DNA of 64,000 bases, from assembly GCA_903856085.1 (NCBI GenBank), contig CAIOAT010000004.1:20722-84721 (forward strand). Reading direction: 5' to 3'. A program made the position numbers and the translations under genes. Below the pieces are notes generated by a model. It was not told the DNA's origin and ran no database searches. It saw nothing but the letters and a program-made list of their open reading frames with translations. Positions 7,599 through 54,974 of this stretch are shown piece by piece (the first letter of the stretch is position 1; every line of letters begins with the position of its first letter). This DNA is from Candidatus Omnitrophota bacterium. GTDB taxonomy: Bacteria > Omnitrophota > Omnitrophia > Omnitrophales > Aquincolibacteriaceae.

Positions 7599-7840
7599 AG
7601 GAGTGGATTATAGCATCCATGGCAACATTCTTTGGAGTCCCGAGTTTTGATTTCTTGAGATTCCAGAATTCCTCAGGGAGCCTTGTCTCATCGTAAGGCG
7701 CGCCAGCTCTTTCTCAATGAAAATGGTTACAATTATGGATTTAAAAGTTTACAATTAGCCTCCGCGTTAAGGGATCCGTGCTTCATCCGCTCGTTTTAAC
7801 TTCAGGCTAAGCGGGCAAGATTTTTTAGGAGAGCCGTCCG

Positions 7841-13706: not shown

Positions 13707-13707
13707 A

Positions 13708-14088
13708 GTGAAAAAAAGAATCCTGATCATCGAGGATAACGAAAAAAACAGGATGCTTGAAAAGGACCTTTTTGAAACGGCGGGGTTTGAGGTTCTGGAG
13801 GCTCCGGACGGTGCGAGCGGGATCGCTCTGGCCCAAAAAGAAAAGCCGGATGCGATCGTGCTGGACATACGGCTTCCGGGGATGCCTGGGCCTCACGTCG
13901 CCAAAATCTTGCGGCAAGAACCCGGGACTCGCGATATTCCGATCATTTTTGTAACGGCTTCGTTGGTCGGAGGGTGGATGGGAGAGCTCAGAGCCATTCC
14001 CAACACCATGCTTCTGTCCAAGCCGTTCGACACACGGACTTTTGTGGAGGAAGTAAGCCGGTTTATCCAGGGAGGATCTCATGAGTAA
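13708..14088 (+). CDS. single-domain response regulator (CheY-like receiver)
   Basis: GTG at 13708, 1 nt after the kinase stop, with RBS aagggga. Receiver motifs IIEDNEKN, D in VLDIRLPGM, SKPF. The ORF-track start at 13621 lies inside the kinase gene and is rejected. Confidence 0.75.
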   Translation: MKKRILIIEDNEKNRMLEKDLFETAGFEVLEAPDGASGIALAQKEKPDAIVLDIRLPGMPGPHVAKILRQEPGTRDIPIIFVTASLVGGWMGELRAIPNTMLLSKPFDTRTFVEEVSRFIQGGSHE

Positions 14089-15493
14089 TATAAAAACGCA
14101 GACGGTTTTGTGCGTCGATGATGATGAGCAAAACCTCCAGCTTCTTGAGGCGCTTCTTTTGCCTTACGGGTTTACGCTTAAATTTTCCGGATCCGGGGAA
14201 AACGCTCTAGCGCAAATCAAAGAAGAGGCCCCGGATCTTATCTTGCTCGACGTGATGATGCCGGGCATGTCAGGCCTGGGAGTGTTGGAGAAATTGCGCT
14301 CCGAGGAAAAAACGCGATTGATCCCTGTGGTTCTTGTAACCGCTCTGAATGCCGAGGAGGATAGGATCCGAGGGATCGAGATGGGATGCGATGATTTCAT
14401 CTCCAAACCGTTTGACAAGAACGAGCTGGTTGCGCGGGTCCGGTCGCTTTTGAAGATCAGTTATTACCGGAGGTCTTTGGATGAGAAGGAAAAGTTCGAG
14501 GCGGTCATTCAGGGATTGAGGGAGGGTGTTATTGTCTGTAGGCCTGATTGGACGGTGACGCGCGCTAATTCCTCGGCCCAACGTTACCTGGATCTTTCGG
14601 AAGGCGACCCTTTCCTTGACCATATTTTTTCTCACTATGTCGTTTCTATTCGTCGGGAGTTTTTAGTCGATCTTTTGCCGGGGCATGAAACATTCGATAT
14701 CAAGCGTGAAGCTACGGCGGCATTCAAGCCGCTTTATTTGGAAGTGCATCGGGATATTTTGAGAGGTCCCGGAGGGGAGCCCTCGTGCTTGGTTCTGACA
14801 TTACGCGATGTCACGCGCCAGAGGCATGAGAGCTTTGTGACCCAGGATTTTTTAACGCTTCTTTCCCATAAATTCAATACGCCCATTGCCGTGATCAGTG
14901 AAACGCTGGATTTCATCAAGGCGGAAGTGAAAAAGGCGGAAAGCCTCGGATTTATCGAGGCAGCGGAAAAGAAACTCAAAGAGATCCATGCCTTGTCCCA
15001 GAGGATCATCTATGTTCTGGAGATGCAAAACAAGGGACTGGATGATGTTTTTCAGGAGGATTTTTTGAACCATGCGATTCATACGGTCAAAGAAAAATTT
15101 GATCTAAAGTACAAAATCGCCGGCATTCTGGAAAAAGATGTTCTTGTCCACAAAGTAGCGTTATGGAAGGTGATAGTTCTCGAAGAGTTAATGGAGAATG
15201 CCTATAAGTTTCGCGGCGAAGATGGACTACGCATGAAATTAACGCTCACGGAAGAGGCGATGACGTTTTCGGACAATGGCGCGGGGATTCCTCCGGAAGA
15301 ACGAGAGAAGATCTTCGAGCCGTTTTATCAGATCTATAAAACTTTTCATGGAAATATTCCGGGCCTCGGGTTGGGACTTACGTTTGTGAAAAAACTCGTG
15401 GAACTCAACCATGGAAAGATCGAGGTTGTCGACGGCTTGCACCAAGGAGCCAGTATCAAGATCGACTTTTTTCCTCAGGTGCAGATGGGGTAA
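14081..15493 (+). CDS. hybrid response regulator-histidine kinase (N-terminal REC, HisKA-like region, HATPase_c)
   Basis: Overlaps the upstream gene by 8 nt (ATGAGTAA). REC motifs (VDDDEQN, LLDVMMPGMSG, SKPF). H-box-like SHKFNTPIAV. ATPase G-boxes (DNGAGIP, GLGLGLTFVKKLVELNHG). Confidence 0.75.
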   Translation: MSNIKTQTVLCVDDDEQNLQLLEALLLPYGFTLKFSGSGENALAQIKEEAPDLILLDVMMPGMSGLGVLEKLRSEEKTRLIPVVLVTALNAEEDRIRGIEMGCDDFISKPFDKNELVARVRSLLKISYYRRSLDEKEKFEAVIQGLREGVIVCRPDWTVTRANSSAQRYLDLSEGDPFLDHIFSHYVVSIRREFLVDLLPGHETFDIKREATAAFKPLYLEVHRDILRGPGGEPSCLVLTLRDVTRQRHESFVTQDFLTLLSHKFNTPIAVISETLDFIKAEVKKAESLGFIEAAEKKLKEIHALSQRIIYVLEMQNKGLDDVFQEDFLNHAIHTVKEKFDLKYKIAGILEKDVLVHKVALWKVIVLEELMENAYKFRGEDGLRMKLTLTEEAMTFSDNGAGIPPEEREKIFEPFYQIYKTFHGNIPGLGLGLTFVKKLVELNHGKIEVVDGLHQGASIKIDFFPQVQMG

Positions 15494-17259: not shown

Positions 17260-18555
17260 CTAGGAAAGCTTAAGTCTCCGCACGGTCGCGTAGGTGACGG
17301 TGAAGATCCCAGCCTCGATCACGATGGTCGCGATTGCCGCTCCCATGTAGGAAAAAGCGTCGATCAGAAGGAATATCACCGGCAGGCCGATCATGGCCAT
17401 CACCACGTGGATCCTGGAATAAAGATGCGTCTTACCGGCGATGAGCAGGAACTGAACGCGGAAAGCGTTGGAGCTGATAAAAAGCACCGAGACGAGGAGC
17501 AGCCTGAAGGAGAGCACGGTTTCCGGATAATCCCCGCCAAAGATCGCCTTGATGATCGGGTGCGCGAAGACAAAGATCAACGGCAGGCAAATGAGGGAAA
17601 TATTGATCGTGATGAGCTGGATCCTTTGCATGAATTCGTAAGCCCGTGTTTTGCTTTTCTGGAAGATCTTGCTCAGACGGGGGAAAAGCGCCTGGGAAAA
17701 GGAAGCCAGAGGGAAGGTCTGGCAGAGGCCCGCCAGTTTCTCGGCGATGGAATAAAATCCTGTGGTTGCGTTATTGGTAAGAAGCCCCACGGCAAAAATG
17801 CGCGTGGTGGTGTAAGCATTGATGGCGACGATCGAAATGAAAATATCCCAGCCCGCCGTCACCTGCCTCCTCAAATTTGTGTATCCCGGAAAACGGAATG
17901 AGACCCCGAGTTTCTTGAAAGCGATGTATTGTCCCCAAATCCCGGTGATCAAGCCTACGCAAGAGGTAATGAGCGGGACCATGAGGTAATCCTCGGGTCC
18001 GTGGACGGAAAAGAGAATGCACAGGACGGTCAGGATTCCGCCGGCGATATTGAGGTCGGCGATATACTTCATTTTTTCCGTCCCCTGGAAGAACCAGACC
18101 GGGAAAAGAGTGTTTCCCAGTACCGCGCCGAAACTTAGCATGTAGACCATCCAGTCGTTACGGAACTTCGGGATGAAATAGACGGCGCAACTCAGGAGCA
18201 CGAGGCTCACGATCGCCAGGACGATCTTCATCGTCATGACCGAAGAAAAAACCTTGTTAACCTCTGCGCGATCGTGCTGGCAAAGAGAAATTTCTTTCGT
18301 GGCGGAGATGCTGAACCCATAGTCGGTGAGGATCATGAAATATTGGGCGAAGGCCTGTGCGAAGGCGATCAGGCCGAATTTCTCCGGACCGATTACCCTA
18401 AAAAGATAGGGGAGGATCAGGACCGGCAGGACATAGGTGATCGCTTGCAGGACCGAAAGCGAGGCGAAATTATGGAGTACGGTCTTCCGTTCGTGCGGCT
18501 TGGCCATGCCGTAAGTTTTTTTGATCTGACGGATCAGCGAGTGCATGGCGCCCAA
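17260..18555 (-). CDS. oligosaccharide flippase family protein (Wzx-like, MOP superfamily)
   Basis: 431 aa, 12 TM. The N-terminal pattern LHNFASLSVLQAITYVLPVLILPYLFRVIGPEKFGLIAFAQA is typical of Wzx/polysacc_synt. Confidence 0.75.
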   Translation of the reverse strand: MGAMHSLIRQIKKTYGMAKPHERKTVLHNFASLSVLQAITYVLPVLILPYLFRVIGPEKFGLIAFAQAFAQYFMILTDYGFSISATKEISLCQHDRAEVNKVFSSVMTMKIVLAIVSLVLLSCAVYFIPKFRNDWMVYMLSFGAVLGNTLFPVWFFQGTEKMKYIADLNIAGGILTVLCILFSVHGPEDYLMVPLITSCVGLITGIWGQYIAFKKLGVSFRFPGYTNLRRQVTAGWDIFISIVAINAYTTTRIFAVGLLTNNATTGFYSIAEKLAGLCQTFPLASFSQALFPRLSKIFQKSKTRAYEFMQRIQLITINISLICLPLIFVFAHPIIKAIFGGDYPETVLSFRLLLVSVLFISSNAFRVQFLLIAGKTHLYSRIHVVMAMIGLPVIFLLIDAFSYMGAAIATIVIEAGIFTVTYATVRRLKLS

Positions 18556-23449: not shown

Positions 23450-25078
23450 TTACTCGATGCTGCCCGAGTAGTTCGAGGATTTTTTCTTATCCTCTTCTTT
23501 TTTCTCTTTGGGTTTATCCGCGATCACGCACTCGGTGGTGAGAATGAGGCCCGCGATACTGCAGGCGTTCTCCACCGCGATACGGACGACCTTGGCCGGG
23601 TCAATGACCTTGGCCTTAACAAGGTCCTCAAATTCGCAGGTCAGCGCGTTGAATCCGAAGTCCCCTTTGTTTTCAAGGATCTTCTTCACGACGACTGATC
23701 CGTCGGCCCCGGCATTGTGGGCGATCTTACGGGCCGGTTCCTGTAGCGCCCGGCGAACGATCTGAACGCCTGTGGCTTCATCGCCCGACGCTTTAACGTC
23801 ATCAAGCGATGCGATGGAGCGCAGAAGTGCCACGCCGCCGCCTGGGACGATGCCTTCGTCGATGGCCGCGCGGGTTGCATGAAGCGCGTCCTCGATGCGG
23901 GCTTTCATTTCTTTCATTTCCACTTCCGTTGCTGCGCCGACCTTCACAACGGCCACGCCGCCGGAAAGTTTCGCAAGTCGTTCCTGGAGCTTTTCTTTAT
24001 CGTAATCCGAGTCCGACCGTTCGATCTCGGCTTTGATCTGATCACAACGGGACTTGATATCTTTCTGGGTTCCCGCGCTTCCCACGATCGTGGTGTTATC
24101 CTTATCGATCACCACGCGCTGGGCTGTGCCGAGCATTTCGAGGTCGACATTTTCGAGTTTTACGCCGAGATCTTCTGAAATGAACTTGCCCTTGGTGATG
24201 ATCGCAATATCTTCCATCAAGGCTTTGCGCCGGTCCCCGAATCCGGGAGCCTTTACGGCTGCGATCTGGAGCACGCCGCGGATCTTGTTGACCACGAGTG
24301 TCGCAAGAGCTTCGCCTTCAATGTCTTCCGAGATGATGAGCAGGGGCTTGCCGAGGCGCGCCACTTTCTCAAGCACTGGGACGAGGTCCTTTACGGCACT
24401 GACTTTTTTCTCGTAAAGAAGGATGTAAGGTTCTTTCAAGACCACTTCCATCCGCTCAGCGTCGGTCACAAAATAAGGCGACAAGTAGCCGCGGTCGAAT
24501 TGCATCCCCTCAACCACGTCCAGTTCGGTCTTGAGACCTTTCGCTTCTTCGACCGTGATCACGCCTTCTTTGCCGACCTTTTCTAGAGCATCCGCCAGAA
24601 GCTGACCGATCGATTGGTCGTTATTGGCGCTGATGGCGCCGACGGCCGTGATGTCCTCTTTGCCTTTGACGGCCTTGGACATTTTCTTGATCGTGTCGAC
24701 GATCTTCGCGGAGGCTCTATCAATACCGCGCTTCAAGGCCATAGGATTGGCACCGGCGGTGACGTTCTTTAAACCCTCGGAAACGATAGCCTGAGCCAGG
24801 ACCGTCGCGGTCGTGGTTCCGTCTCCAGCGTTATCCGAAGTCTTTTCCGCGACTTCCCGGACCATTTGGGCGCCCATATTCTCATACGGGTCCTTCAGGT
24901 CGATCTCTTTGGCGACCGTGACACCGTCTTTGGTCACAAGGGGTGCGCCGAATTTCTTATCGATCACAACATTGCGGCCGCGGGGACCGAGCGTGACGCT
25001 GACAGCCCTTGCGAGGATGTCGACGCCGCGTTTGATCCGCTGGCGCGCTTCTTCCGAGTAGGAAATCAATTTTGCCAT
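23450..25078 (-). CDS. groEL: chaperonin GroEL paralogue (distal copy; lacks the GGM tail and ends in a Lys/Glu-rich tail)
   Basis: Full-length Cpn60: [17 protein letters not shown], etc. C-terminus is [21 protein letters not shown] instead of GGM repeats. Confidence 0.9.
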
Positions 25079-25424: not shown

Positions 25425-27113
<1,689 letters not shown>

Positions 27114-44434: not shown

Positions 44435-44638
44435 AGCGAAAGCGCCAGATTTCCCTGCCTCAATAAAAATCAAAATAACCATTCTAGTGCCATTTTGGAT
44501 CATTTAAAGCTATTAATTGCTATGTATTGCTGTTATTATGGCTATTAACTTATATAAACAGTGTTATTTATTAACAAGTTTATAAGAAGCTATTGACTAC
44601 AGCCGATCTGTAGAGTACTTTTCTATTGGAGAGACATA

Positions 44639-45589
44639 ATGAAAAAAGGAAATGTTTTAGACCAACAATTGGGATGTGTGAAAGCCTGGGATTGGAGTCC
44701 GGAGATGCGAGATCCGAGCTTTGCTTTCGAGACTTTTGACGCTGAAGCATTGATGGGCCGGCAAGTCACAAGTCACATGTCTCGAGTTCTCGCGTCGAAA
44801 TCGGATTGGAAAAAATTAGTCGCTCTCAGCACAGCTTTCATATTCCTCTGGTCCATGTGCATCACCCCCGTGATGGCCGAGACGATCAAGCTGGAAGGCG
44901 GATCGGTGGAGGTGAATGTCCAGGACAACACAACGAATTGGAAAGTGCAGGGCAACCCGGTGTGGAATGTTCCGGAGTTCAATGTCGCTCAGGGAAGTAT
45001 TTACAATATCGCGGGTCTTGGCACCGGCTCAAGCCTTGCGCTTTTGGTGAATGGCGGTAGCGCGTCCAACATCTTTGGCACCATGAATTTATTCAACCTC
45101 GATTTTATCCTTCAGAATATCGCCGGCATCAATATCGGCAGAAGTGCCATGATCAATCTCAATAGCGCTTCTCTTATAGCTTCAACCCTGCCGCTTAACT
45201 TGAGCGCGACGGATTTTCTGGCGCGCAACTATCAGTTCAGTGGGCAGGGTGCGTTCTTATCCAATGCCGGCCACATCATCGGTACGAATGCGAATCTCGT
45301 GGCCCTTGTATCCAATACCATCGAGAACACAGGAACGATCGAAGTTCCGATGGGCACCGTGGCCCTGGCTGCGGGGAACACCGTGCAGTCGGTATTTCAG
45401 CAGACGGTCTCGTGTCGATCGGCGTCGATGAGGCTACGGCGAATAAGCTCGGCCTTGCGGACCAGATCAAGAATAGCGGTACGATCTCGGCCCAGGGCGG
45501 CAAGGTTGTTCTTAACGCCAAAGCCGTCGACGGACTTTTTGAAAAGGCGATCAACATCGCCCCAGGAGCCAATGCCACGGCTGTGGTGA
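44639..45589 (+). CDS. N-terminal segment of the giant exoprotein: extended signal peptide plus TPS (filamentous haemagglutinin N-terminal) domain. The frame is lost near 45395 and the remainder of this ORF is out-of-frame read-through.
   Basis: About 55-aa N-terminal extension, then classical signal peptide LVALSTAFIFLWSMCITPVMA. EFNVAQGSIYNI..LLVNGGSASNIFG..NIAGINIG..NLNSASLIAST parallels the TPS-domain pattern (FNV..G.vfNN, NPNGI, LtT). The last 60 aa are Arg-rich low complexity. Confidence 0.6.
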   Translation: MKKGNVLDQQLGCVKAWDWSPEMRDPSFAFETFDAEALMGRQVTSHMSRVLASKSDWKKLVALSTAFIFLWSMCITPVMAETIKLEGGSVEVNVQDNTTNWKVQGNPVWNVPEFNVAQGSIYNIAGLGTGSSLALLVNGGSASNIFGTMNLFNLDFILQNIAGINIGRSAMINLNSASLIASTLPLNLSATDFLARNYQFSGQGAFLSNAGHIIGTNANLVALVSNTIENTGTIEVPMGTVALAAGNTVQSVFQQTVSCRSASMRLRRISSALRTRSRIAVRSRPRAARLFLTPKPSTDFLKRRSTSPQEPMPRLW

Positions 45590-48500
45590 AGTCCGATGAT
45601 GGCGTGATCGAATTTGTTGCACAGGGGAACATCCTGAATCAGGGAACTGTGCAGGCCAAACGCGGCGAGATCAAAATGGAAGCTACGGGCGACATTGAGA
45701 CGCGTGGAAGTCTTGTGGCTTCCCGTTTTTCTGAGAAGGCCGCTGCCTTCAAGATCAGCGGGCTCTATATGGTCGGCATTTCGTCCCACAACAATCTGGA
45801 TAATGCCATCACCTATACCGGCAACACCACGGTTTCCGGCACGATCGAGGACGTGGACGATATTATCATCAATGCCGGCGTGACCATCACTTTGGCCGGT
45901 GATACGAGCTTCGTCGCCGATTCCGATCAGAATTACAGCCTCACCGGGCACAACACCGGAGCTTTCACCATGGGCGCGGGTTCGTCGATCGACGGTACGG
46001 CCGGGCATCACTATAACCTGTCGATTAGCGCCTCCAAAGTATCGCACCTCTATAACATTGCGAATGTCGGCTCTCTGACCCTCGGTGCATCTAGGACTGG
46101 CTCCAATCCTTCTTACGTCATGCATAACGCTATTTCCACCGCCAGTGATTTTACGTTGAACAAAGGAACCGCGACGCTCGCGGGCGGCGATCTGACGGTC
46201 GGAGGTATTTTTACGGTTGGAGAAGGCGCGATTTTCAACGAAACGACCGATATGGCAGGCGCTAATGCGTATGTCGCCCATTTCGGTTCAGACGATATTG
46301 TCGGAACTTATCGGAATGTTAGTAACGGAACTGCTGCGATGCGCGTGGCCTCGGTTTCAGATCTGCAGGCCGTGCGTGATGTCCTTGACCAGAACTATGT
46401 TCAGACAGGCGACATCTCGGGCGTTGGGGATTTCACGAACTATATCATCGGTGATGGCGATACTCCTTTCACCGGCACGTTTAACGGCAACGGGTATACG
46501 ATCGACAGTCTTACCCTCAACACGGGTGCCGATAACGTCGGTCTCTTCGGCTACACGAGCGGCGCCACGATCCAGAATGTCGGACTTATCCATGTTAATG
46601 TCACGGGCGTTAGTAACGTCGGCGGTCTTGTGGGACATAACAGTGCTTCTTCTACGATTGATAATTCGTATGTGGAAGGAGATGTCGTCGCGAATGGGGG
46701 GGATTACGGAGGGGGACTTGTTGGTGACAATGAAGGAACTATCACCAATTCCTACACGAGTGGGAGCGTGTCAGGCGGTTATTACAACATTGGAGGGCTT
46801 GCCGGAGGCAACTATGGCGGCGCAATCGATAGCTCTCATTCGAGTAGCAGCGTATCCGGTCAACATAGCACAGGCGGTCTTGTCGGGAGTAATGAAGGTG
46901 GGTCGATCACCCATTCTTACGCCACGGGGGATGTTTACGGCGAAAATTATGCAACAGGGGGACTTGTCGGACAAAATGGATATCTGGTTTCGGGCAGTAT
47001 AGACAATTCCTACGCCACCGGAGATGTTACTTCGTCAGGCAGCCAGGTGGGCGGTCTTGTCGGATACTCCTGGGGAACGACTCGCGGTTCGATCTCCAAC
47101 TCTTACGCCACGGGGGATGTGAGTGCTGACGGAGCCGTCGGCGGTTTAGTCGGCGTTCTCAATAATGAAGACCTTTTAAATTCCTATGCCACGGGAAATG
47201 TGACTGGGGGTTCGGACGTAGGTGGCCTCGTGGGGCTTAGCCTCCTTTCTTTTGTCGAAAATAGCTACGCTAAAGGGACTGTCATCGGCACTGATCGGGT
47301 CGGTGGTCTTGTAGGACAGAACGAAGGGACCATCTCTAAATCCTACGCCACAGCGAATGTTAACGAAACCGGTGGTGGCTCCACCGAAGGTGCTGGTGGC
47401 CTTGTGGGATTTAATGAGGGAATTATTTCCGAATCCTATGCCACAGGTTCGGTTCTCGGCAATTACATTGCTGGCGGGTTGGTAGGCTGGAACAGCAGTA
47501 CAATTTCTAACTCTTACGCTACCGGCACCGTGGGAGGGAGTCAATATGCGGGTGGTCTTGTTGGGGTTAATGATAATTTATCCCAAATCGATAATTCCTA
47601 TGCCACGGGCCTTGTCAATAATGGCGTCGGAGGGGCTAACATCGGCGGTTTCATCGGGTTGAGTTTGAGTGATGCATACGCCGGTAACTTTTGGAATCAA
47701 GAGACGACCCAGCAGGGTTATGGGACGGGTGCTGGCGATGTCGATGGTATTACGGGAAAGACCACTCTTCCGATGGAAGATGTCACCACTTTTACGAACG
47801 CAGGATGGGATTTCAATGGGCTTTGGAAGATCAATGCGGGGGAAGCTCCGCACCTGATCTGGCAGGACATGACCTACAGTACCGACTTTATTGGTGGAAC
47901 TTCGGCGATGCCGATGCAGATCCACAATGTCAACGAGTTGCAGTTTATGAAGTACGAGCTCAGCAGTTCTTTTAAACTCGTTCAGGACATCGATGCTTCG
48001 AGCACGGTGGGATGGAATGGCGGCTTGGGATTTGCTACGGTTGGCGATATTAACAATTATTTTACAGGAACATTTGACGGGCAGGGTCACACGATCACAG
48101 GTCTCACGATCAATCGCTCGACGGGTTATCCGAACAACTTTTCTATCCCGGAATACTCGGATATCGGTCTTTTTGGCAGAACGGAAGGGGCGAAGATAAG
48201 CAATGTAGGTCTCCTCGACGTGAACATCACGGGAGACCTGTTTGTTGGCGGGCTTGTCGGTTGGAACGGCACCGGATCTTCCGTTACCAATTCTTATGTC
48301 ACAGGAAGCGTCGAGGGCTACTATGACCAGATCGGCGGTTTGGTAGGGCGAAATTTTCAGGGGGCCATTAGTAATTCTTATTCGAAAGCCACGGTTCGAG
48401 GACACTGGTGGTGGGTGGGAGGATTGGCAGGTATTTCCGACGGCGGCAGTATCACTAACTCCTATGCTGCTGGGGACGTCTACGACGATGTTGGGGGCGG

Positions 48501-51500
48501 CACTGGTGGTTTGTTAGGTCATAGCGGGGGCTCTTCGATCAGCAATTCGTATGCTGTCGGAAGCGTAAACGGCGTTTGGTATGTGGGTGGTTTAATCGGA
48601 TATGACGGGGGAGGGAACGCCTTTGCCAACAACTGGTGGTGGAAAAGCGCCGGACACAACGCCGGACTGAATGATACCGGGACTTCCGGTGATCTTCCTA
48701 ATACCCAGATTGCCACAGAAGAAACACTGTCTAATTTTTATTCTCCCGCTCACGCGGTGTACGCAATCGGTGCGGCAGGGCAATGGGATATTTTCACTCC
48801 CATTTGGGATATGTATGCGAATGAATTTCCAAGGTTGCATTTTGAAGGTCACAACGGCAACATCTATTCTGTGTGGAGCGGCGCTTCATCCGTCTGGTCT
48901 GCCGCCTCGAATTGGGTGGGGAATGCCTTGCCGGGTGACAATATTTTTATCAGTCATCGTACCTTTGATCCCATTGTGGATGCCGATGTTGCTTCTTCAA
49001 TCGTCATTATCAACTCTGGAGCAACGCTTGATCTTGGAAGTTTCAGTCTTTCCGGCGTTGTTACGAATTTGGGTACCGTAAAACTTGTCGGGGACAATAT
49101 CTCGGTATCGGCGATCACGGAAGGTACGGTCAATTATTACGGTACAGGCACCTATGCCGGCCTTAAAGCAGGTTATGACTATATGAACCTCATTTTTTCC
49201 GGCGTGGGCGGGACCTATACGATCAACAACTCCCTTACCACTTCAGGAGATATGACGATTGAGGCAGGCACCATCAATCAGAATGCCGGACTTTCCATCG
49301 GCGGCAATTTTTCCCAATCGGGTGGCACGCTTAATCAAAACGCCGGGCTTTCTGTCTTCGGAGGTTTCTTCAAATCCGGCGGCATATTCAATAATAATGC
49401 AGCGATTACTTTGGCCATGGATTTTCTCTCGCTGGTAGGAGGGACGTTCAACCAGAACGTGGCCATGATTCTTGCGAACTACAACCAAAGCGGCGGCGCC
49501 TTCAATCAAAATAATAATCTTTTCATCGGCGGTGATTATATCCAGACAGGTGGGACATTCATGGATGCTGCGCCGCTGGCGCATGCTTTCACCGTTGAAG
49601 GTAGTTTCTCACTGCCGTACGGGACGAACGCGTTCCGCCGTTACACGGGAGCGGGCACGACGAACGATCCTTTCGTGATCCGGAATCTTTACGATCTTCA
49701 GGGCCTGAAGGGGAATCTTACCTCGAATTTCAAATTAAACACGAGTCTGGATGCATCATCGATTTCCGGATGGAATGCCGACGCCGGTTTTGATCCGATC
49801 GGGGACGCGACACACGCATTCACGGGAACCTTGAGTGGTTTTGGGAAAGTGATCTCGAACCTCACGATGCATTGGGAGGGGAACGATTACGTGGGTCTTT
49901 TCGGGAATATCGGTGTCGGTGGTTTGGTGAGCGAACTTGCGCTCGAAAAAGTGAGCTCGTATGGCCGTCATTATGTCGGAGGTCTGGCGGGTCTTAATGA
50001 AGGCACGCTTTCGAATGTTTACACGACGGGATCTTTTACGGTCAGCGGTGTGAATTTTGTTGGAGGTCTTGTGGGAGGGAACACGGGCTCGATCGCGAAC
50101 GCTTATTCCAGTGCTCGCGTGGTTGGGACAGATACCGTGGGCGGTTTGGCAGGTTTCAATACCGGAACGATCCAAAAGACTTACGCAATGGGTCAAGTGA
50201 CGGGTTCTTCCAATACCGGCGGCCTTGTCGGTACCGGCACCGGAACTGTGGCGAATTCTTTTTGGAGTCAGAAAATGACCGGGCAAGCGACAAGCGCCGG
50301 AGGGACCGCGGGTAAAGTGATCGGTATCACGACCAATGACGAGGGCTATGCGGTTCCGGATCCCGAAGATGTCGCGGATCCGGCTTCCGATATGATGAGC
50401 TCCGGCACGTTCTCGGGATGGGATTTCGGGAGCACCTGGGTGATGGACGAAGGCGGGTCTTTCCCCCACTTCCAGTTCCGTTTTCCTGAGGGTGTGCGCG
50501 GGGTTTGGGGAGTTGTCTATAACACGGAGGGTGCTACCACGGAGGCCGGCAGGACTGTTGATCTTTACGTAAACACAAATTCTTTGGACACGACCGGTCT
50601 TGGGACCCAGGTGGATACCACGAGGAGCACCGCGGACGGGATGTATTATTTTGTGATGGGAGCGAATGATGTTCAGGCCCAAGATTGGGTGATCGGCAAG
50701 CTGAACGGTGGGGACAATTTTACGGGGAACACCCGGATGCCCGCCGAAACGGGGAGCATCAAAGAACTGGATATTTGGGGGACCCTGGCGCGGATGATTC
50801 CCCATCCGAAAGAGCCGCCGCCGATTCGCATTCCCGCGAATGAGTCCTTGCAAGAGGCCCAGGGGGAGGTTAACCGGAGCCTTCAAAGTCTGATGAACAA
50901 CACCGGCCAAATAGCCTCGCTTGAAGGAGTCTGGGGCAAGGCGTCGGATGTTCAGATCCAGGATCAAACGCTATCCGTTTCTGGGATAGAGATGACTATT
51001 TCTGAAAACGCTTGGATTTCTTTTTATGACGAATCCGCGCCGGGGATTGAACCGGTTCCGACGTTCACTTTGACCCATGTTGGGACGGAAACCGCGGGGC
51101 TCCAGTCCGGGAGTACGAAATCGGTGATGCTTGAGATCGCTGAAAATCTCGTGCAATCTCCGAAAGGACGTGAGGCCTCCGGGAGCGCGGAGTCCTCCTC
51201 TGTTTCGTCAGCAGGTGGACAGGCAACCGATGCGACCGATTCTGCCAATGCCGCGGCTCAAGCAAGTGATGAGTCAACGGGCAGCGATGCGGCGGCTTCG
51301 CCTGCGACTGAAGCCGCGGATGAAAATGCCGATGCGGCTGGCCAGAAAGCTTTGGCGGCGGACGAACAGACGGACGAAAACGCAGAAGCTGTCGACCAGG
51401 CAGTTTCTGCAAACGATGAGCAAGCGACAGAGAGTCAAACTTCTCCGGAAAAAAACGCGGCAAGCTCCGCGGATCGTGGCGCAAAGAGCAGCTCCAACTT

Positions 51501-52341
51501 TTTTGGTGAGGAAGCGAAAAAATTCCTGACGGATGTTCGAGTGATCGATGGAGTGGTGTATGTGGTGGATAGCGCCAGCGAGGTATCCCTTTTGACTCCC
51601 GGAGAATCGGTGCGTGTACTTTTCAAGGAGCAGTCGGGTCTTGTGAAAGCCAGGGGGACGGCTTCTGTCGCGGGAGTTCTAGATCCAATACCCATGCCTG
51701 TGAAGGCTGATCCGTTGCCGGTACTGGCCGTGAAAACGGATCCGCCGCCGTTGATGGCTCTAAAGGCGGACCCATCGGATGCTCGTATCAAAGCCGATTT
51801 TTCGACAGTGAGCGTGAAAACCAACCCGCCGGAAACGGTTGAGAAGGTCGATTTGCCTGTGAAGGCTGCCAATGTCCCGCCGATGTTCACGCCGCAGGAG
51901 CCCAAGGATATTGCAAAGCTCGGGCTGTTTGCGGTTCAGAGAACGACAAATAGCGGAGTGCGGTACGGAACTCTGAAGAATCCTGGGAAGAACGTATTTG
52001 TGAAATGTCCGGGCGGGGAATGGCAGGCGGCGAAGGAGGGCATGATCATTCTTCCGGGAGATGAGGTCCGGACAGCGGCTCAAAGCTCCGTGGAGGTGTT
52101 GCTGGATGATGGCAAGGTCGGGCAGCTTAAGATCCAGGAAGGGAGTTTATTCCGCATCAATAAAGCCGAGACGAACCCCGCGACCGAAGGCAAAACAACG
52201 CTCCTGGATCTCGCGATCGGGAAGATGTTGATCAAGGTCGGGAAGCTCAAAGGGGACTCGAAGTTTGAGGTCCGCACTCCGACTGCGCTCACCGGCGTCC
52301 GTGGTACCGTTTTCGAGGTGACCGTGAAGGAAAAAGTTTAA
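45412..52341 (+). CDS. giant surface/exoprotein body: filamentous beta-helix, more than 30 GLUG-motif repeats, beta-helix NQN repeats, acidic linker, VKxDP repeats and a C-terminal FecR-like domain. Continuous with 44639..45403 apart from a -1 frameshift.
   Basis: Recurring about 27-aa unit NSYATGxVxGxxxVGGLVGxNxGxI (GLUG motif). GGTxNQNAGLSIGGNF repeats. D/E/A-rich stretch near 51180-51500. VKADPLPVLAVKTDPPPLMALKADP repeats. C-terminal LPGDEVRT..VLLDDG..RTPTALTGVRGTVFEVTV matches the FecR domain pattern. Confidence 0.7.
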   Translation: MSIGVDEATANKLGLADQIKNSGTISAQGGKVVLNAKAVDGLFEKAINIAPGANATAVVKSDDGVIEFVAQGNILNQGTVQAKRGEIKMEATGDIETRGSLVASRFSEKAAAFKISGLYMVGISSHNNLDNAITYTGNTTVSGTIEDVDDIIINAGVTITLAGDTSFVADSDQNYSLTGHNTGAFTMGAGSSIDGTAGHHYNLSISASKVSHLYNIANVGSLTLGASRTGSNPSYVMHNAISTASDFTLNKGTATLAGGDLTVGGIFTVGEGAIFNETTDMAGANAYVAHFGSDDIVGTYRNVSNGTAAMRVASVSDLQAVRDVLDQNYVQTGDISGVGDFTNYIIGDGDTPFTGTFNGNGYTIDSLTLNTGADNVGLFGYTSGATIQNVGLIHVNVTGVSNVGGLVGHNSASSTIDNSYVEGDVVANGGDYGGGLVGDNEGTITNSYTSGSVSGGYYNIGGLAGGNYGGAIDSSHSSSSVSGQHSTGGLVGSNEGGSITHSYATGDVYGENYATGGLVGQNGYLVSGSIDNSYATGDVTSSGSQVGGLVGYSWGTTRGSISNSYATGDVSADGAVGGLVGVLNNEDLLNSYATGNVTGGSDVGGLVGLSLLSFVENSYAKGTVIGTDRVGGLVGQNEGTISKSYATANVNETGGGSTEGAGGLVGFNEGIISESYATGSVLGNYIAGGLVGWNSSTISNSYATGTVGGSQYAGGLVGVNDNLSQIDNSYATGLVNNGVGGANIGGFIGLSLSDAYAGNFWNQETTQQGYGTGAGDVDGITGKTTLPMEDVTTFTNAGWDFNGLWKINAGEAPHLIWQDMTYSTDFIGGTSAMPMQIHNVNELQFMKYELSSSFKLVQDIDASSTVGWNGGLGFATVGDINNYFTGTFDGQGHTITGLTINRSTGYPNNFSIPEYSDIGLFGRTEGAKISNVGLLDVNITGDLFVGGLVGWNGTGSSVTNSYVTGSVEGYYDQIGGLVGRNFQGAISNSYSKATVRGHWWWVGGLAGISDGGSITNSYAAGDVYDDVGGGTGGLLGHSGGSSISNSYAVGSVNGVWYVGGLIGYDGGGNAFANNWWWKSAGHNAGLNDTGTSGDLPNTQIATEETLSNFYSPAHAVYAIGAAGQWDIFTPIWDMYANEFPRLHFEGHNGNIYSVWSGASSVWSAASNWVGNALPGDNIFISHRTFDPIVDADVASSIVIINSGATLDLGSFSLSGVVTNLGTVKLVGDNISVSAITEGTVNYYGTGTYAGLKAGYDYMNLIFSGVGGTYTINNSLTTSGDMTIEAGTINQNAGLSIGGNFSQSGGTLNQNAGLSVFGGFFKSGGIFNNNAAITLAMDFLSLVGGTFNQNVAMILANYNQSGGAFNQNNNLFIGGDYIQTGGTFMDAAPLAHAFTVEGSFSLPYGTNAFRRYTGAGTTNDPFVIRNLYDLQGLKGNLTSNFKLNTSLDASSISGWNADAGFDPIGDATHAFTGTLSGFGKVISNLTMHWEGNDYVGLFGNIGVGGLVSELALEKVSSYGRHYVGGLAGLNEGTLSNVYTTGSFTVSGVNFVGGLVGGNTGSIANAYSSARVVGTDTVGGLAGFNTGTIQKTYAMGQVTGSSNTGGLVGTGTGTVANSFWSQKMTGQATSAGGTAGKVIGITTNDEGYAVPDPEDVADPASDMMSSGTFSGWDFGSTWVMDEGGSFPHFQFRFPEGVRGVWGVVYNTEGATTEAGRTVDLYVNTNSLDTTGLGTQVDTTRSTADGMYYFVMGANDVQAQDWVIGKLNGGDNFTGNTRMPAETGSIKELDIWGTLARMIPHPKEPPPIRIPANESLQEAQGEVNRSLQSLMNNTGQIASLEGVWGKASDVQIQDQTLSVSGIEMTISENAWISFYDESAPGIEPVPTFTLTHVGTETAGLQSGSTKSVMLEIAENLVQSPKGREASGSAESSSVSSAGGQATDATDSANAAAQASDESTGSDAAASPATEAADENADAAGQKALAADEQTDENAEAVDQAVSANDEQATESQTSPEKNAASSADRGAKSSSNFFGEEAKKFLTDVRVIDGVVYVVDSASEVSLLTPGESVRVLFKEQSGLVKARGTASVAGVLDPIPMPVKADPLPVLAVKTDPPPLMALKADPSDARIKADFSTVSVKTNPPETVEKVDLPVKAANVPPMFTPQEPKDIAKLGLFAVQRTTNSGVRYGTLKNPGKNVFVKCPGGEWQAAKEGMIILPGDEVRTAAQSSVEVLLDDGKVGQLKIQEGSLFRINKAETNPATEGKTTLLDLAIGKMLIKVGKLKGDSKFEVRTPTALTGVRGTVFEVTVKEKV

Positions 52342-52469: not shown

Positions 52470-53594
52470 ATGAGCGCTTCCGAAAAACCGTATCAGGCGA
52501 CGCATGAGATCGGGCGCGTCTACGACGCGATCACCGACAGCAAAGTCCTCGTAAATTTTTTTCTCACCACGGCGCTCCAGTTCATTCCCGCCGCGCAAAG
52601 CTATCTTTTTCTTGCGGCCAAGAACAAAACTCTTTTACTGGAGGTCTCGGTTCCCTTGACCGTGGAGGTCCCGTCCGATCTCGCCGCGGAGGCACAAAAA
52701 ATATTTGAAGACGGAAAACTCCGCGTGGGAAAAGGCCGGATGTTCCTTCCTTTGATTGCCCGGAACAGCGTTATGGGCGTCGCATGTCTTGAAAGAACGG
52801 CCGAGGCGCCGGGTTTTACCTCCCAGGAAGCCGAAATCGGATTTGATCTGGCTTCGGAATTTTCCGGCGCTCTCAAGAATATCCTCCTTTTTGAAGAGAA
52901 CATGAAAATGGAACGCTTGGCCGCGGTCGGGCAGGCGATGGGCATGGTGGTCCACGAGATCAGGAATATCATGCAACTCGCGCGTTTCTCAGACGAGATG
53001 ACTCGTATCGGGCTCAAGGAGAAGAATGAGAAATTTCTCACCACCGGTCTTTCAAAAATGACCAAGACGTTGAAGGAAATGGATGGGTTTATCGGGGAGA
53101 TGTTGAGTTTGACGAAAGATTATCAGCTGGAGCCCGAAAATGTAGACCTGTCAGCGATCCTGGAGGAATTACAAAGTGATCTCGCGGAACAGGCGCACAG
53201 ATATCGTATCAAGCTTGATTTTAAAACGGATCCTGGTTTTCCAGTGGTCGAAGGGGACGGGCGGTCTCTTTATCGCGCGCTTCTTAATCTCGTGAAAAAT
53301 GCTCTTGAAGCTTTCCAAGACAACAAAGATGCATGCATCAAGATCCGCGCCCGGATCAAGGATGATGAACATTACGAACTGATCGTTGAGGATAATGCCT
53401 CCGGGATGAGCGAAGAAGTGAGGGCTAAACTTTTCGAAGCGTTCTTTTCAACCAAAGGCAAGCGAGGGACGGGACTCGGATTGATGGTCGTGGCGCGCAC
53501 GGCCAAGATGCATCAAGGCAGCGTGAAGGTCGAAAGCCAGCTTGGGGTGGGTACAAAATTCATTCTGACTTTGCCGTGCATTTTCCGGGAGTAA
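52470..53594 (+). CDS. cytoplasmic GAF-domain sensor histidine kinase
   Basis: No TM. GAF-like N-terminal half. H-box VVHEIRN. HATPase G-boxes (EDNASGM, GTGLGLMV). Confidence 0.7.
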   Translation: MSASEKPYQATHEIGRVYDAITDSKVLVNFFLTTALQFIPAAQSYLFLAAKNKTLLLEVSVPLTVEVPSDLAAEAQKIFEDGKLRVGKGRMFLPLIARNSVMGVACLERTAEAPGFTSQEAEIGFDLASEFSGALKNILLFEENMKMERLAAVGQAMGMVVHEIRNIMQLARFSDEMTRIGLKEKNEKFLTTGLSKMTKTLKEMDGFIGEMLSLTKDYQLEPENVDLSAILEELQSDLAEQAHRYRIKLDFKTDPGFPVVEGDGRSLYRALLNLVKNALEAFQDNKDACIKIRARIKDDEHYELIVEDNASGMSEEVRAKLFEAFFSTKGKRGTGLGLMVVARTAKMHQGSVKVESQLGVGTKFILTLPCIFRE

Positions 53595-53654: not shown

Positions 53655-54974
53655 TCAGGGGATGACTACGGTGAGGGCGGTGATGTCATCGTGCTGGTCA
53701 GCGCCGGTCGTGAAATTACGAACTTCCTCAAAGATCCTCTCCGAATAAGCCGCAGCCGAATCCGCCTCTTTCTTCACGCATTCCGCGAGCCGCTCAATCG
53801 TGTATTCCTTGCCGTGTTTGTCTCGCGCCTCCACAACACCGTCCGTGTAAAGGAAGAGGGCATCGCCTGATTCCAGGTGGATCGTGTTAAGAAAGAAAGG
53901 CGTCTCCGGCATCAGTCCGAGCGGCGGGCTCTGAGCTCCTTTCAGACTCTCCGCTGTGCCGTCCGTGATTTTTCTTAAAAGGATCGGGAGATGACCTGCC
54001 GAGGAATACTGGACAGTGTTCATATTCTTGTCGATGAGAAGGCAGATGATGGTGAGGAACATTCCAAACGGGCTGTTCACGGAAAGGCGTTGGTTGAGGG
54101 CTGTCAGAAGTTCGGCCGGATCCTTGGCCTGGGGCGCGAGAAAACGGTATTCCGACATCGCGCGGACCATATAAAGCGCGGCCGGAACGCCTTTTCCGGA
54201 CACGTCGCCCAAGATGACGCCGATCCGATTTCCTTCGAGTGCGATCACGTCATAGAGATCGCCGCCTACATCAAAGGCCGGAAGCGAAAGAGCGCTCAGA
54301 TCGATCCCGAAATGCCGGCTCGTGAGATCGGGAAGAAAATTCTGCTGGATCTCATGGGCGATCTTCAGGGCCTGTTTGGTCTTTTCCTGTTTGACGATCT
54401 CACCGTGGAGCCGTGCGTTCTCGATGGCAATGGCCGCCTGGTCTGCGAAGGTCTCGAAAAGTTCCAGATCTTCCTGGCAGAACTTATCGCGTCCCCGAGG
54501 ATTGATGGCCTGTAGAACGCCAAGGATCTTGCCTTTGGCTTTCATGGGGACGCAGAGGATCGCTCTTGTGACGAAGCCCGTGGAATCGTCAAAGCGTTTG
54601 GCGAAGCGCGGGTCTTTTTGAGGATGATTCACGATCTCGGGTTTTCCGGACGCTGCGACCGAACCGGCGATACCTTCGCCCATCTTTACACGGAATTTTT
54701 CTTCCAAGGCCGCGCCTTTACCGCCCAGCGCTACCCGGAACACCAATTCGTTGGAGGTTTCATCGATCAGGAGCAGCGACGCGACTTCGGAGTGCATGAC
54801 CTCGGAGGATGTGTTCATGATGACCGCGAGGAGTTCGTTCAGTTTGAGCGTGGAGTTGAGGATTCCTGTGAGCGCGAGAACTTTCCGGAGATTTTCAATT
54901 GTCGGATCTCCGGGGATTTTTTTGTCAGAAGCTCTCCGGGTTTTTTCACGGCGAACTTTTGTCGTTTTTCTCAT
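53655..54974 (-). CDS. GAF domain-containing PP2C-type (SpoIIE/RsbU family) serine phosphatase
   Basis: GAF region in the N-terminal half. C-terminal PP2C motifs (GDLYDV, GDVSGKG, LYTDGVVEA, DDITALTV). Start lies 9 nt downstream of the DUF3307 stop. Confidence 0.75.
   Translation of the reverse strand: MRKTTKVRREKTRRASDKKIPGDPTIENLRKVLALTGILNSTLKLNELLAVIMNTSSEVMHSEVASLLLIDETSNELVFRVALGGKGAALEEKFRVKMGEGIAGSVAASGKPEIVNHPQKDPRFAKRFDDSTGFVTRAILCVPMKAKGKILGVLQAINPRGRDKFCQEDLELFETFADQAAIAIENARLHGEIVKQEKTKQALKIAHEIQQNFLPDLTSRHFGIDLSALSLPAFDVGGDLYDVIALEGNRIGVILGDVSGKGVPAALYMVRAMSEYRFLAPQAKDPAELLTALNQRLSVNSPFGMFLTIICLLIDKNMNTVQYSSAGHLPILLRKITDGTAESLKGAQSPPLGLMPETPFFLNTIHLESGDALFLYTDGVVEARDKHGKEYTIERLAECVKKEADSAAAYSERIFEEVRNFTTGADQHDDITALTVVIP

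Follow-up and report, generated by a model that had tools for sequence, protein, structure and literature searches.

The subject of this report is a ~7.7-kb gene in a 64,000-nucleotide stretch of contig CAIOAT010000004.1 from a Candidatus Omnitrophota bacterium (the whole stretch is referred to below as the window). Profile and structure-model comparisons identify its product as a TpsA-type exoprotein, that is, a substrate of type Vb or two-partner secretion (TPS), and the protein ends in a FecR-family module that also exists as a separate gene product. Read from the sequences, the fused gene looks like a covalent version of the separate TpsA, FecR, CHASE2 enzyme and TpsB genes found in other Omnitrophota. 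We consider it moderately probable that the FecR tail of the TpsA fibre is kept in the periplasm, where it would serve as an anchor, as a CHASE2 partner or as both. Our wider proposal is put forward only tentatively: an undescribed trans-envelope module, present in Omnitrophota and possibly in other bacteria, in which a TPS fibre would be coupled in the periplasm to a CHASE2 diguanylate cyclase or PP2C phosphatase through a FecR-fold domain, either free or fused.

Domain analysis was carried out on the conceptually repaired protein of 2,567 residues, the gene being interrupted by a frameshift that is described below. The C-terminal FecR domain proposed in the initial annotation is borne out by this analysis. 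Pfam FecR (PF04773) matches residues 2475-2563 with 37.1-38 bits against a gathering cut-off of 24, covering model positions 1-82 of 97, and is the only Pfam family reported in the C-terminal 672 residues. In an AlphaFold model of the last 280 residues, based on a 68-sequence alignment, the FecR module has a predicted local distance difference test score (pLDDT) above 90 and is preceded by a disordered linker and, before that, by a confidently modeled module of four strands. A fold search with the FecR module returned as its best match the periplasmic retention plug 5ix9, followed by the periplasmic anti-sigma domains 4m0h and 6ovm; a sequence search of the PDB with the FecR profile found nothing. 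The structure 5ix9 is the anchoring domain of MpIBP, and it served as template in modeling the retention module by which LapA is held in its outer-membrane pore (bioRxiv 10.1101/198937).

The FecR module is separated from the folded passenger by ~280 residues (2150-2429) which are mostly low-complexity or proline-rich, with one small folded element between. Both the D/E/A-rich linker and the five VK(A/T)DP-like repeats (residues 2355-2397) of the initial annotation are present in this region. Low-complexity linkers comparable to the first of these segments occur in homologues and in the unfused TpsA proteins of the loci discussed below. The small folded element, which we term the mini-module, is retained in the fused homologues and also at the C-termini of the unfused TpsA proteins of loci L026 (~7700-7830), L052 and L053, which end in a low-complexity linker followed by this element (T.V.v.EG.VYV...). 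The mini-module may be a docking site for the FecR protein. The idea that it is half of a FecR domain was rejected, as its hhalign comparison with the FecR module gave a probability of 0.8%.

At the other end of the protein, the claim of a TPS (haemagglutination activity) domain held with respect to the identity of the domain but not as a match to library profiles. Pfam PF05860 gave no match to the repaired N-terminus even at E<=10, and TIGR01901 scored 22.5 bits, under its cut-off of 29.1. When a profile built from seven family members (A2) was compared with PDB sequences, it matched EtpA (8cpk, E=5.5e-14) and HMW1 (2odl, E=3.9e-7) over ~210 residues. We also used a model of the homologue P0007, which is 80% identical to the window protein in the TPS domain. 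This AlphaFold model has pLDDT >90 for residues 40-340, its top Foldseek matches in the PDB are the secretion domains of EtpA, HMW1, HxuA, FHA and HpmA, and it matches nine TPS-domain chains at E<=2.4e-5. In place of the canonical NPNGI motif the protein has QNIAGI, with ILQNIAGINIG aligned to lvNPNGvlfG of EtpA; this sequence is invariant in the family and keeps only the Asn and Gly. We regard the N-terminal domain, on this profile and model evidence, as a genuine but divergent TPS domain.

The TPS domain is preceded by an extended signal peptide, as initially annotated, and the extension is both real and conserved among paralogues. It consists of 58 residues (44639-44812) ahead of the hydrophobic core. 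In paralogues the extension is 50-108 residues long, and its first residues are conserved as MKxxNxxxQ. It has no Pfam match and hence does not belong to the ESPR family (PF13018). The signal-peptide core (44813-44878), consisting of KK and a 20-residue hydrophobic stretch, ends at the cleavage-type site VMA/ETI, where the residues AET are invariant in eight homologues. The assignment as a Sec signal peptide was made from the sequence by eye.

The fusion of a FecR domain to a TPS-type filament, which had been pointed out initially as unusual, is confirmed but is not a one-off. Intact reading frames with a TPS start and a FecR end are found at L005 (1,725 residues), L019 (2,692), L027, L029 (3,251 residues with 38 GLUG motifs) and L033. 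An exhaustive search of 1.84 billion representative sequences places the FecR module at the extreme end of proteins of 1,409-5,861 residues. Eleven of these FecR-terminated proteins start with a TPS domain (P0157, P0162, P0165-P0167, P0169, P0172, P0177, P0179, P0186 and P0204); relative to the window, the TPS domains of nine are 68-84% identical and those of the remaining two (P0186, P0204) are 35-41% identical. Full-length TPS...FecR proteins fall into at least 11 distinct clusters at 50% identity, and some of them adjoin TpsB or CHASE2 genes. Six further contigs from the same metagenome (Ga0114951_*: L029, L031, L039, L043, L048, L049) carry FecR-terminated genes with modules that are 66-83% identical, and the source population probably holds several fused paralogues. 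On L031 a CHASE2 gene lies 9 kb downstream.

The same FecR module also occurs on its own. Hundreds of homologues of ~145-165 residues, returned by the exhaustive search and by a word-indexed one, consist of a cleavable Sec signal peptide and the FecR module alone, at 45-55% identity, and these free proteins share with the fused module the end point GVRGTxFEV. Fused and free forms have in common the longer motif EVRTPTxxxGVRGTxFEV and some 20 further positions, all of them invariant or almost invariant. A second architecture, seen in P0221, P0226, P0234-P0237, P0241, P0249 and others, consists of proteins of 740-2,250 residues that carry a signal peptide and two stretches resembling FecR, the best of which lies near residues 215-345. 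These proteins have the layout neither of the C-terminal fusions nor of the 150-residue free forms.

We read eight genomic contexts of the module, six with a stand-alone FecR gene and two with a divergent fused TpsA-FecR gene. A CHASE2-GGDEF or CHASE2-SpoIIE gene is adjacent in six of the eight, and a TpsB gene in four. In L026, genes for a TpsA (1,451 residues), a FecR protein (152 residues), a CHASE2-GGDEF protein and TpsB are followed by genes for CHASE2-SpoIIE, a LapG-like Peptidase_C93 and a 369-residue FecR protein. In L052 (NCBI Omnitrophica MAG, that is metagenome-assembled genome, GCA_016192545.1) TpsB is divergent from TpsA (2,659 residues), FecR and CHASE2-GGDEF, while L053 contains a large gene, FecR, TpsB and CHASE2-SpoIIE. 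L022 and L054 have FecR and CHASE2-GGDEF, and L024 has FecR alone. Of the two fused contexts, L055 carries a TpsA-FecR gene (1,956 residues), a second TpsA and CHASE2-GGDEF, and in L056 a TpsA-FecR gene (4,132 residues) adjoins two TpsB genes, a free FecR gene and further giant genes. We refer to L026, L052, L053, L055 and L056 as cassette-type loci; the window itself has only TpsA with its fused FecR module. The cassette TpsA proteins pass the Pfam TPS threshold, with TPS domains 31-42% identical to that of the window, and in L026, L052, L053 and L056 TpsA proteins with such domains have an adjacent TpsB.

Some further features of these loci were noted. The Peptidase_C93 gene of L026 (14643-15164) encodes a LapG-like, transglutaminase-type cysteine protease (35 bits) and follows the CHASE2-SpoIIE gene (12369-14213, minus strand). 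By analogy, its position beside the operon hints at control by proteolytic release as in Lap/CdrA systems. Giant genes lie next to FecR, CHASE2 or TPS loci on L056 (1-9646, minus strand), L054 (18576-20447) and L022 (13907-16453). The source gene calls give products of 6,843, 12,009 and 3,033 residues, and the 6,843-residue product has a FecR match.

From these observations we propose the following sequence of events. The protein would cross the inner membrane by Sec, and its TPS domain would be recognized by a TpsB pore (POTRA and ShlB domains) encoded elsewhere in the genome. The passenger would be threaded outward and fold into a long fibre, presumably an adhesin. The trailing end, made up of the low-complexity linker, the small beta module, the proline-rich linker and the compact FecR domain, would not leave the cell, and the folded FecR domain in the periplasm would tether the fibre through the pore in the manner of the LapA/MpIBP retention modules and of the CdrA and FhaB C-termini. 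As a second or alternative role, the FecR domain of a diguanylate cyclase's or PP2C phosphatase's neighbour may touch the CHASE2 domain of that enzyme in the periplasm, a sensor domain that controls cyclic di-GMP (c-di-GMP) synthesis or a PP2C switch, and would in this way couple export or load to signalling. We infer a periplasmic location of the tail because the free homologues carry a Sec signal and nothing else, because FecR/PupR domains act in the periplasm, because the nearest fold is a periplasmic plug, and because the module leaves last, behind ~280 mostly unstructured residues. Contact with CHASE2 is suggested because the FecR module is recurrently paired with CHASE2 enzyme genes. Precedents for TPS substrates held at the C-terminus are CdrA, which is anchored through CdrB, and FhaB, whose large C-terminal prodomain is reported to be taken off in the course of secretion (PMC4542190).

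A number of observations weigh against a periplasmic, CHASE2-linked tail. The Foldseek E-value for the retention-like fold is only 0.023, and the NCBIfam retention_LapA profile (NF033682), which matches FecR-module residues with E=4.8e-4, reaches 20 bits against a cut-off of 50, leaving the window module outside the LapA-like retention-module family. The window protein also lacks an NPNGI-type TPS motif. Among the window reading frames of at least 400 residues, every one of which was scanned with Pfam, there is no TpsB (POTRA/ShlB) and no CHASE2 protein, and a TpsB of the Omnitrophota type, taken from a related cassette and used as a tblastn query, found no match in the window. The initial statement that no TpsB gene lies nearby can therefore be extended to the entire 64 kb. 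The same 64 kb contain no LapG-type or LapD gene, and clustering of the downstream reading frames of 19 loci gave orthologous sets but no common neighbour of the fused paralogues. In the absence of a TpsB, CHASE2 or LapG gene in the window and of a shared downstream neighbour, the partner of the module is hypothetical in this genome, whose TpsB and CHASE2 genes, if it has any, would lie beyond the 64 kb. Lastly, the frameshifted gene may make no functional product in this organism.

The initial annotation had placed the FecR domain at the tip of the filament, in which case the whole protein would be exported and the domain would serve as a binding (adhesive or receptor-recognition) module at the free fibre end. 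In the FHA model the C-terminal part of the mature protein is distal, and conservation in the present family is far higher in the C-terminal module than in the passenger, which could suit a functional head. In addition, the NCBIfam matches of the module include the Leptospira lipoproteins LipL45, Lsa33 and Lsa19, which bear adhesin or surface-protein names and make a FecR fold at the surface conceivable, a further point against a periplasmic role. We nevertheless find a tip location unlikely. With only a Sec signal peptide and no TPS domain, the stand-alone homologues can by themselves get no farther than the periplasm, and yet they share the invariant motifs of the fused module; in structure the module comes closest to a periplasmic plug and after that to periplasmic anti-sigma domains; the CHASE2 genomic partners sense on the periplasmic side; and ~280 mostly disordered or low-complexity residues ahead of the module would be unusual for a rigid tip. 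The free Sec-signal homologues, the plug-like fold and the long linker all fit the periplasm better. A tail that is periplasmic only during export, where it would aid folding or timing before being cleaved and degraded with no part in anchoring or signalling, is also conceivable. In FhaB a proline-rich region leads into a conserved domain at the extreme C-terminus, and the prodomain stays in the periplasm or inside the cell. The window tail is laid out in a comparable manner, and one cassette (L026) has the LapG-like protease gene beside it. We think such a transient role quite improbable, given that the linker contains no conserved LapG-type TAAG site (by eye, DAAG in the window and DAAD at the corresponding point in P0028) and that the recurrent pairing of the module with CHASE2 points to signalling rather than to folding alone.

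The remaining alternative to a retained, functional tail concerns the intactness of the gene. The initial annotation described a single reading frame of ~7.7 kb. The gene does occupy the coordinates given (Table 1), but it is made up of two overlapping open reading frames (ORFs) in different frames, 44639-45589 (316 residues) and 45412-52341 (2,309 residues), and the final 67 residues encoded by the first are out-of-frame sequence. Across the junction eight homologues (58-74% identical) all read ...AAGNTVTVGISxDGLVSIGVDEATAN..., and in a comparison with the DNA of 10 paralogues the window has gtg ca gtc where L005 has gtg aca gtc. Since the homologues keep the Thr codon and the window retains two bases of it, we place a one-base deletion at 45386. 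The sequence there, as read by us, has no homopolymer or slippery heptamer, and for this reason programmed frameshifting and phase variation were judged unlikely. The source record (JGI 3300009502, contig Ga0114951_10000019, 223,374 bp) likewise calls two genes, and the first coding piece is identical to protein P0001 of that contig. This split is what would be expected of a dead locus, a pseudogene that is decaying within a birth-and-death family and whose architecture merely reflects its ancestry: the deletion cuts the TPS domain off after residue 249, the ~2,300 residues beyond have no signal peptide, and with many paralogues one loss would be tolerable. Against this, the frame 3' of the lesion stays open for 6.9 kb with neither another stop nor another frameshift, the gene has kept its promoter motifs and ribosome-binding site intact, and in a metagenome contig a single base of a repeat-rich gene with many copies can be lost through an error of assembly or consensus calling. 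The long open frame implies that the lesion is very recent or an assembly error, and in the present assembly the gene is either a very recent pseudogene or such an error. A dead locus is possible but the less probable outcome in our view, and the reading we prefer remains that of a TpsA fibre whose FecR tail would be retained in the periplasm.

Table 1. Features of the TpsA-FecR gene and of its immediate surroundings in window coordinates.
Feature	Position	Strand	Basis
TpsA-like putative adhesin gene, ~7.7 kb	44639-52341	+	ORF list, Pfam, repaired translation
AT-rich promoter/operator region	44470..44638	+	Upstream alignment of 21 paralogues
First coding piece, residues 1-249 (N-terminal extension, signal-peptide core, first two thirds of TPS domain)	44639..45385	+
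TPS domain, EtpA/HMW1 type, spanning the frameshift	44879..45627	+	Family profile and structure model of homologue
Frameshift site, ca in place of a Thr codon (ACN)	45386..45387	+	Protein alignment and paralogue DNA
Second coding piece, residues 251-2567 and stop	45388..52341	+	ORF list, translation
GLUG block 1, 13-14 units, period ~27-31 residues, after Peptidase_M26_N-like segment	46435..47727	+	Pfam, motif positions
GLUG block 2, 5-6 units	48085..48657	+	Motif positions
Gly/Asn/Gln-rich NQN repeats (GT[IL]NQNAGLS...), presumed beta-helix, residues ~1500-1640	49135..49557	+	Translation
GLUG block 3, 4-5 units	49735..50307	+	Motif positions
Ala/Ser/Glu/Asp-rich low-complexity linker, residues 2150-2286	51085..51495	+	Composition A 0.23, S 0.16, E 0.11, D 0.08
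C-terminal mini-module, FF..EAKKFLTDVRVxEGxVYVxD...G.S.RV.FK, four beta-strands	51496..51630	+	Conservation, model pLDDT ~90
Proline-rich linker, five [VIL]K[AT][DN][PF] repeats (residues 2355-2397)	51631..51924	+	Predicted disordered, pLDDT <55
FecR-family beta-sandwich module, equal to an entire stand-alone periplasmic FecR protein minus its signal peptide	51925..52338	+
Soluble histidine kinase, 374 residues, HEIRN H-box and HATPase_c	52470..53594	+	Pfam
GAF-SpoIIE (PP2C) phosphatase with no CHASE2 domain	53655..54974	-	Pfam

Between the TPS domain and the tail lies a passenger that is probably beta-helical and that presumably forms an adhesive fibre. Pfam Glug (PF07581) matches with E=2e-63 (207 bits), and Peptidase_M26_N, a segment type usually found before GLUG repeats, matches residues 600-681 with E=4e-10. 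The GLUG motifs do form three blocks, as initially annotated, but the figure of more than 30 was an overcount: a motif search finds 22 strict units with a GGLVG core and at most 25 loose ones, in blocks of 13-14, 5-6 and 4-5 with a spacing of 26-31 residues. The NQN-type repeats are likewise present where they had been described, at residues ~1500-1640; Pfam gave no match to them.

By sequence, the window gene belongs to a family of scattered paralogues that is specific to Omnitrophota. The TPS profile picked out 20 loci in species-representative genomes, nearly all in Omnitrophota MAGs, with five copies in MAG CAYZYT01 and eight in CAZSFZ01. The TPS domains have a mean column identity of 82%, and the passengers diverge (GLUG, YDG-type and other repeats). 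Each paralogue sits in a different housekeeping neighbourhood, and a TpsB gene lies directly upstream of none of the 10 paralogues checked. Two members call for comment: the apparent end of the 2,758-residue paralogue on L011 (~17900-18000) follows a masked run (N translated to X) and may not be its true C-terminus, and the 2-kb contig L017, on which this TPS domain is also found, bears the label Armatimonadota, possibly through mis-binning.

The paralogues also share their promoter region. The AT-rich leader described initially at 44435-44638 is confirmed (GC content 0.32), and ~150 nucleotides 5' of the ATG are conserved across paralogues and genomes (the window, L001-L019, L027 and L029). 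The window promoter has four phased GCTATA-like direct repeats (~44507-44550) with a spacing of ~11 bp, then a -35-like TTGACT (44592-44597), 17 nucleotides, a -10-like TACTTT within the near-palindrome AGAGTACT(C/T)T, and the ribosome-binding site GGAGAG. In the family as a whole, a -35-like TTGACT or TTGTTT is followed after 17 nucleotides by a -10-like TACTCT in the 10-bp palindrome AGAGTACTCT, and then by TCTATTGGG(A) and the ATG. The core motif occurs nine times in the 844 kb of sequence examined, at eight distinct sites (L057 being the window's own contig). All of these sites are located ~25-30 nucleotides ahead of the ATG of a TPS gene, and none lies elsewhere in the 844 kb. The phased GCTATA repeats are almost only found at these TPS-gene promoters. 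Generic promoter and terminator scans around the gene performed at chance level. The shared upstream sequence suggests that a single DNA-binding factor co-regulates the whole adhesin family.

The AT-rich leader is thus a conserved promoter/operator region and not a mark of foreign origin, and the suggestion of horizontal acquisition was not upheld. The gene has a GC content of 0.51-0.53 and a third-codon-position value (GC3) of 0.58-0.62, both within the range of the flanking genes, and there is therefore no compositional sign of such an event. Of the two downstream genes described initially as a GAF histidine kinase and a GAF-PP2C phosphatase, both exist and the phosphatase has its GAF domain; Pfam finds none in the kinase. 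The kinase also follows the orthologous adhesin gene in L030 and L051 (82% identity), and it and the GAF-SpoIIE gene are syntenic in these two orthologous loci (82-88% identity). The PP2C domain of the GAF-SpoIIE phosphatase is 38% identical to the PP2C domain of the CHASE2-SpoIIE protein of L026. Two window ORFs of a size suitable for TpsB, which might be taken for the missing transporter, turned out to be other proteins: 23450-25078 and 25425-27092, both on the minus strand, are tandem GroEL (Cpn60) paralogues of 542 and 555 residues. A further candidate, the 520-residue ORF at 2983-4545, is at best a Wzy_C-like membrane protein. No extracytoplasmic function (ECF) sigma-70 factor and no TonB-dependent receptor was found among the window ORFs scanned. 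Farther away, the window encodes a 1,710-residue sensor histidine kinase with dCache_3 and at least five PAS domains (8574-13706, plus strand), followed by a receiver-HATPase hybrid at 14081-15493.

Among characterized two-partner systems, the window protein resembles EtpA of enterotoxigenic E. coli and HMW1 of Haemophilus influenzae in having a long beta-helical passenger and a probable role as an adhesin. It differs from them in reading QNIAGI for NPNGI, in its GLUG-repeat passenger and in its C-terminal FecR module, which has no counterpart in EtpA or HMW1. Whereas the genes for EtpA and HMW1 adjoin TpsB (and a glycosyltransferase gene), the window has no such transporter gene in 64 kb. FhaB/FHA of Bordetella, a TpsA with a C-terminal part thought to be periplasmic during export, is comparable by layout only: its prodomain is ~1,200 residues long and is removed, whereas the window tail is ~420 residues and has at its end a FecR-family domain for which free-standing genes are known as well. 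The CdrA/CdrB system with LapG/LapD of Pseudomonas aeruginosa finds echoes in the related cassettes, which have GGDEF enzymes and in one case a LapG-like protease gene. CdrA is held by a disulfide 'cysteine hook' and has a TAAG cleavage site, while the candidate stopper of the window protein has a FecR fold, at most one Cys and no conserved TAAG. In LapA-like RTX adhesins such as MpIBP, with its RIN module (5ix9), secretion is by the type 1 route with the C-terminus first and the module is N-terminal; in the type Vb protein of the window the module is C-terminal. The window module is also longer (~125 residues against 76 in MpIBP RIN) and passes the Pfam FecR threshold.

The FecR/PupR anti-sigma regulators offer a different comparison. 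They pair with an ECF sigma factor and a TonB-dependent transducer, neither of which is found in the window neighbourhood, and the window protein has no anti-sigma domain, transmembrane helix or detected C-terminal subdomain. Other parallels are provided by the 'BiofilmReg' operon of Burkholderia, in which a gene for a FecR-domain protein is paired with a CHASE2 sensor gene (PMC5192318), and by the CHASE2 adenylate cyclase clusters of Campylobacterota, which show the same FecR-CHASE2 pairing (PMC9239204). These resemble L022, L026, L052, L053, L054 and L055 in having a secreted FecR protein beside a CHASE2 enzyme. No TpsA or TpsB is reported for the Burkholderia and Campylobacterota clusters, and their FecR protein carries LysM or is described as an outer-membrane protein, unlike the window module, which is minimal and fused to TpsA. 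The FecR-CHASE2 neighbourhood has thus been recorded before, without a link to TPS. In our literature searches no paper brought FecR or CHASE2 together with TPS systems, none brought retention modules together with FecR, and nothing relevant to a TPS, FecR and GLUG architecture was found; the Omnitrophota literature that we checked makes no mention of this adhesin family or its domains.

CHASE2 is a widespread sensor domain. The factors that it recognizes were not known as of 2016 (PMC5192318), and the role of the FecR-domain proteins encoded next to it has so far been unexplained. The loci described here tie the FecR-CHASE2 pair to a two-partner secretion system, and the fused gene is an argument for a direct action of the FecR module on the trailing end of the adhesin. 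Candidate partners of the module are the TpsA tail, the periplasmic domain of CHASE2 and the POTRA domains of TpsB. If our proposal is correct, the fused genes would be a 'Rosetta stone' for binding of the FecR protein to the TpsA tail, and the CHASE2 sensor domain would have in the FecR protein its first candidate for a protein ligand. A FecR-like fold would also be suggested to serve adhesins of type 1 and type Vb alike as their stopper in the periplasm. Omnitrophota are uncultured and are suspected of attaching to hosts or prey (PMC10066038). For these bacteria our analysis defines a large, apparently co-regulated family of variable surface fibres, and, should the proposed coupling hold, the export, load or attachment of these adhesins would be reported to the cell, or the cell would control their retention.

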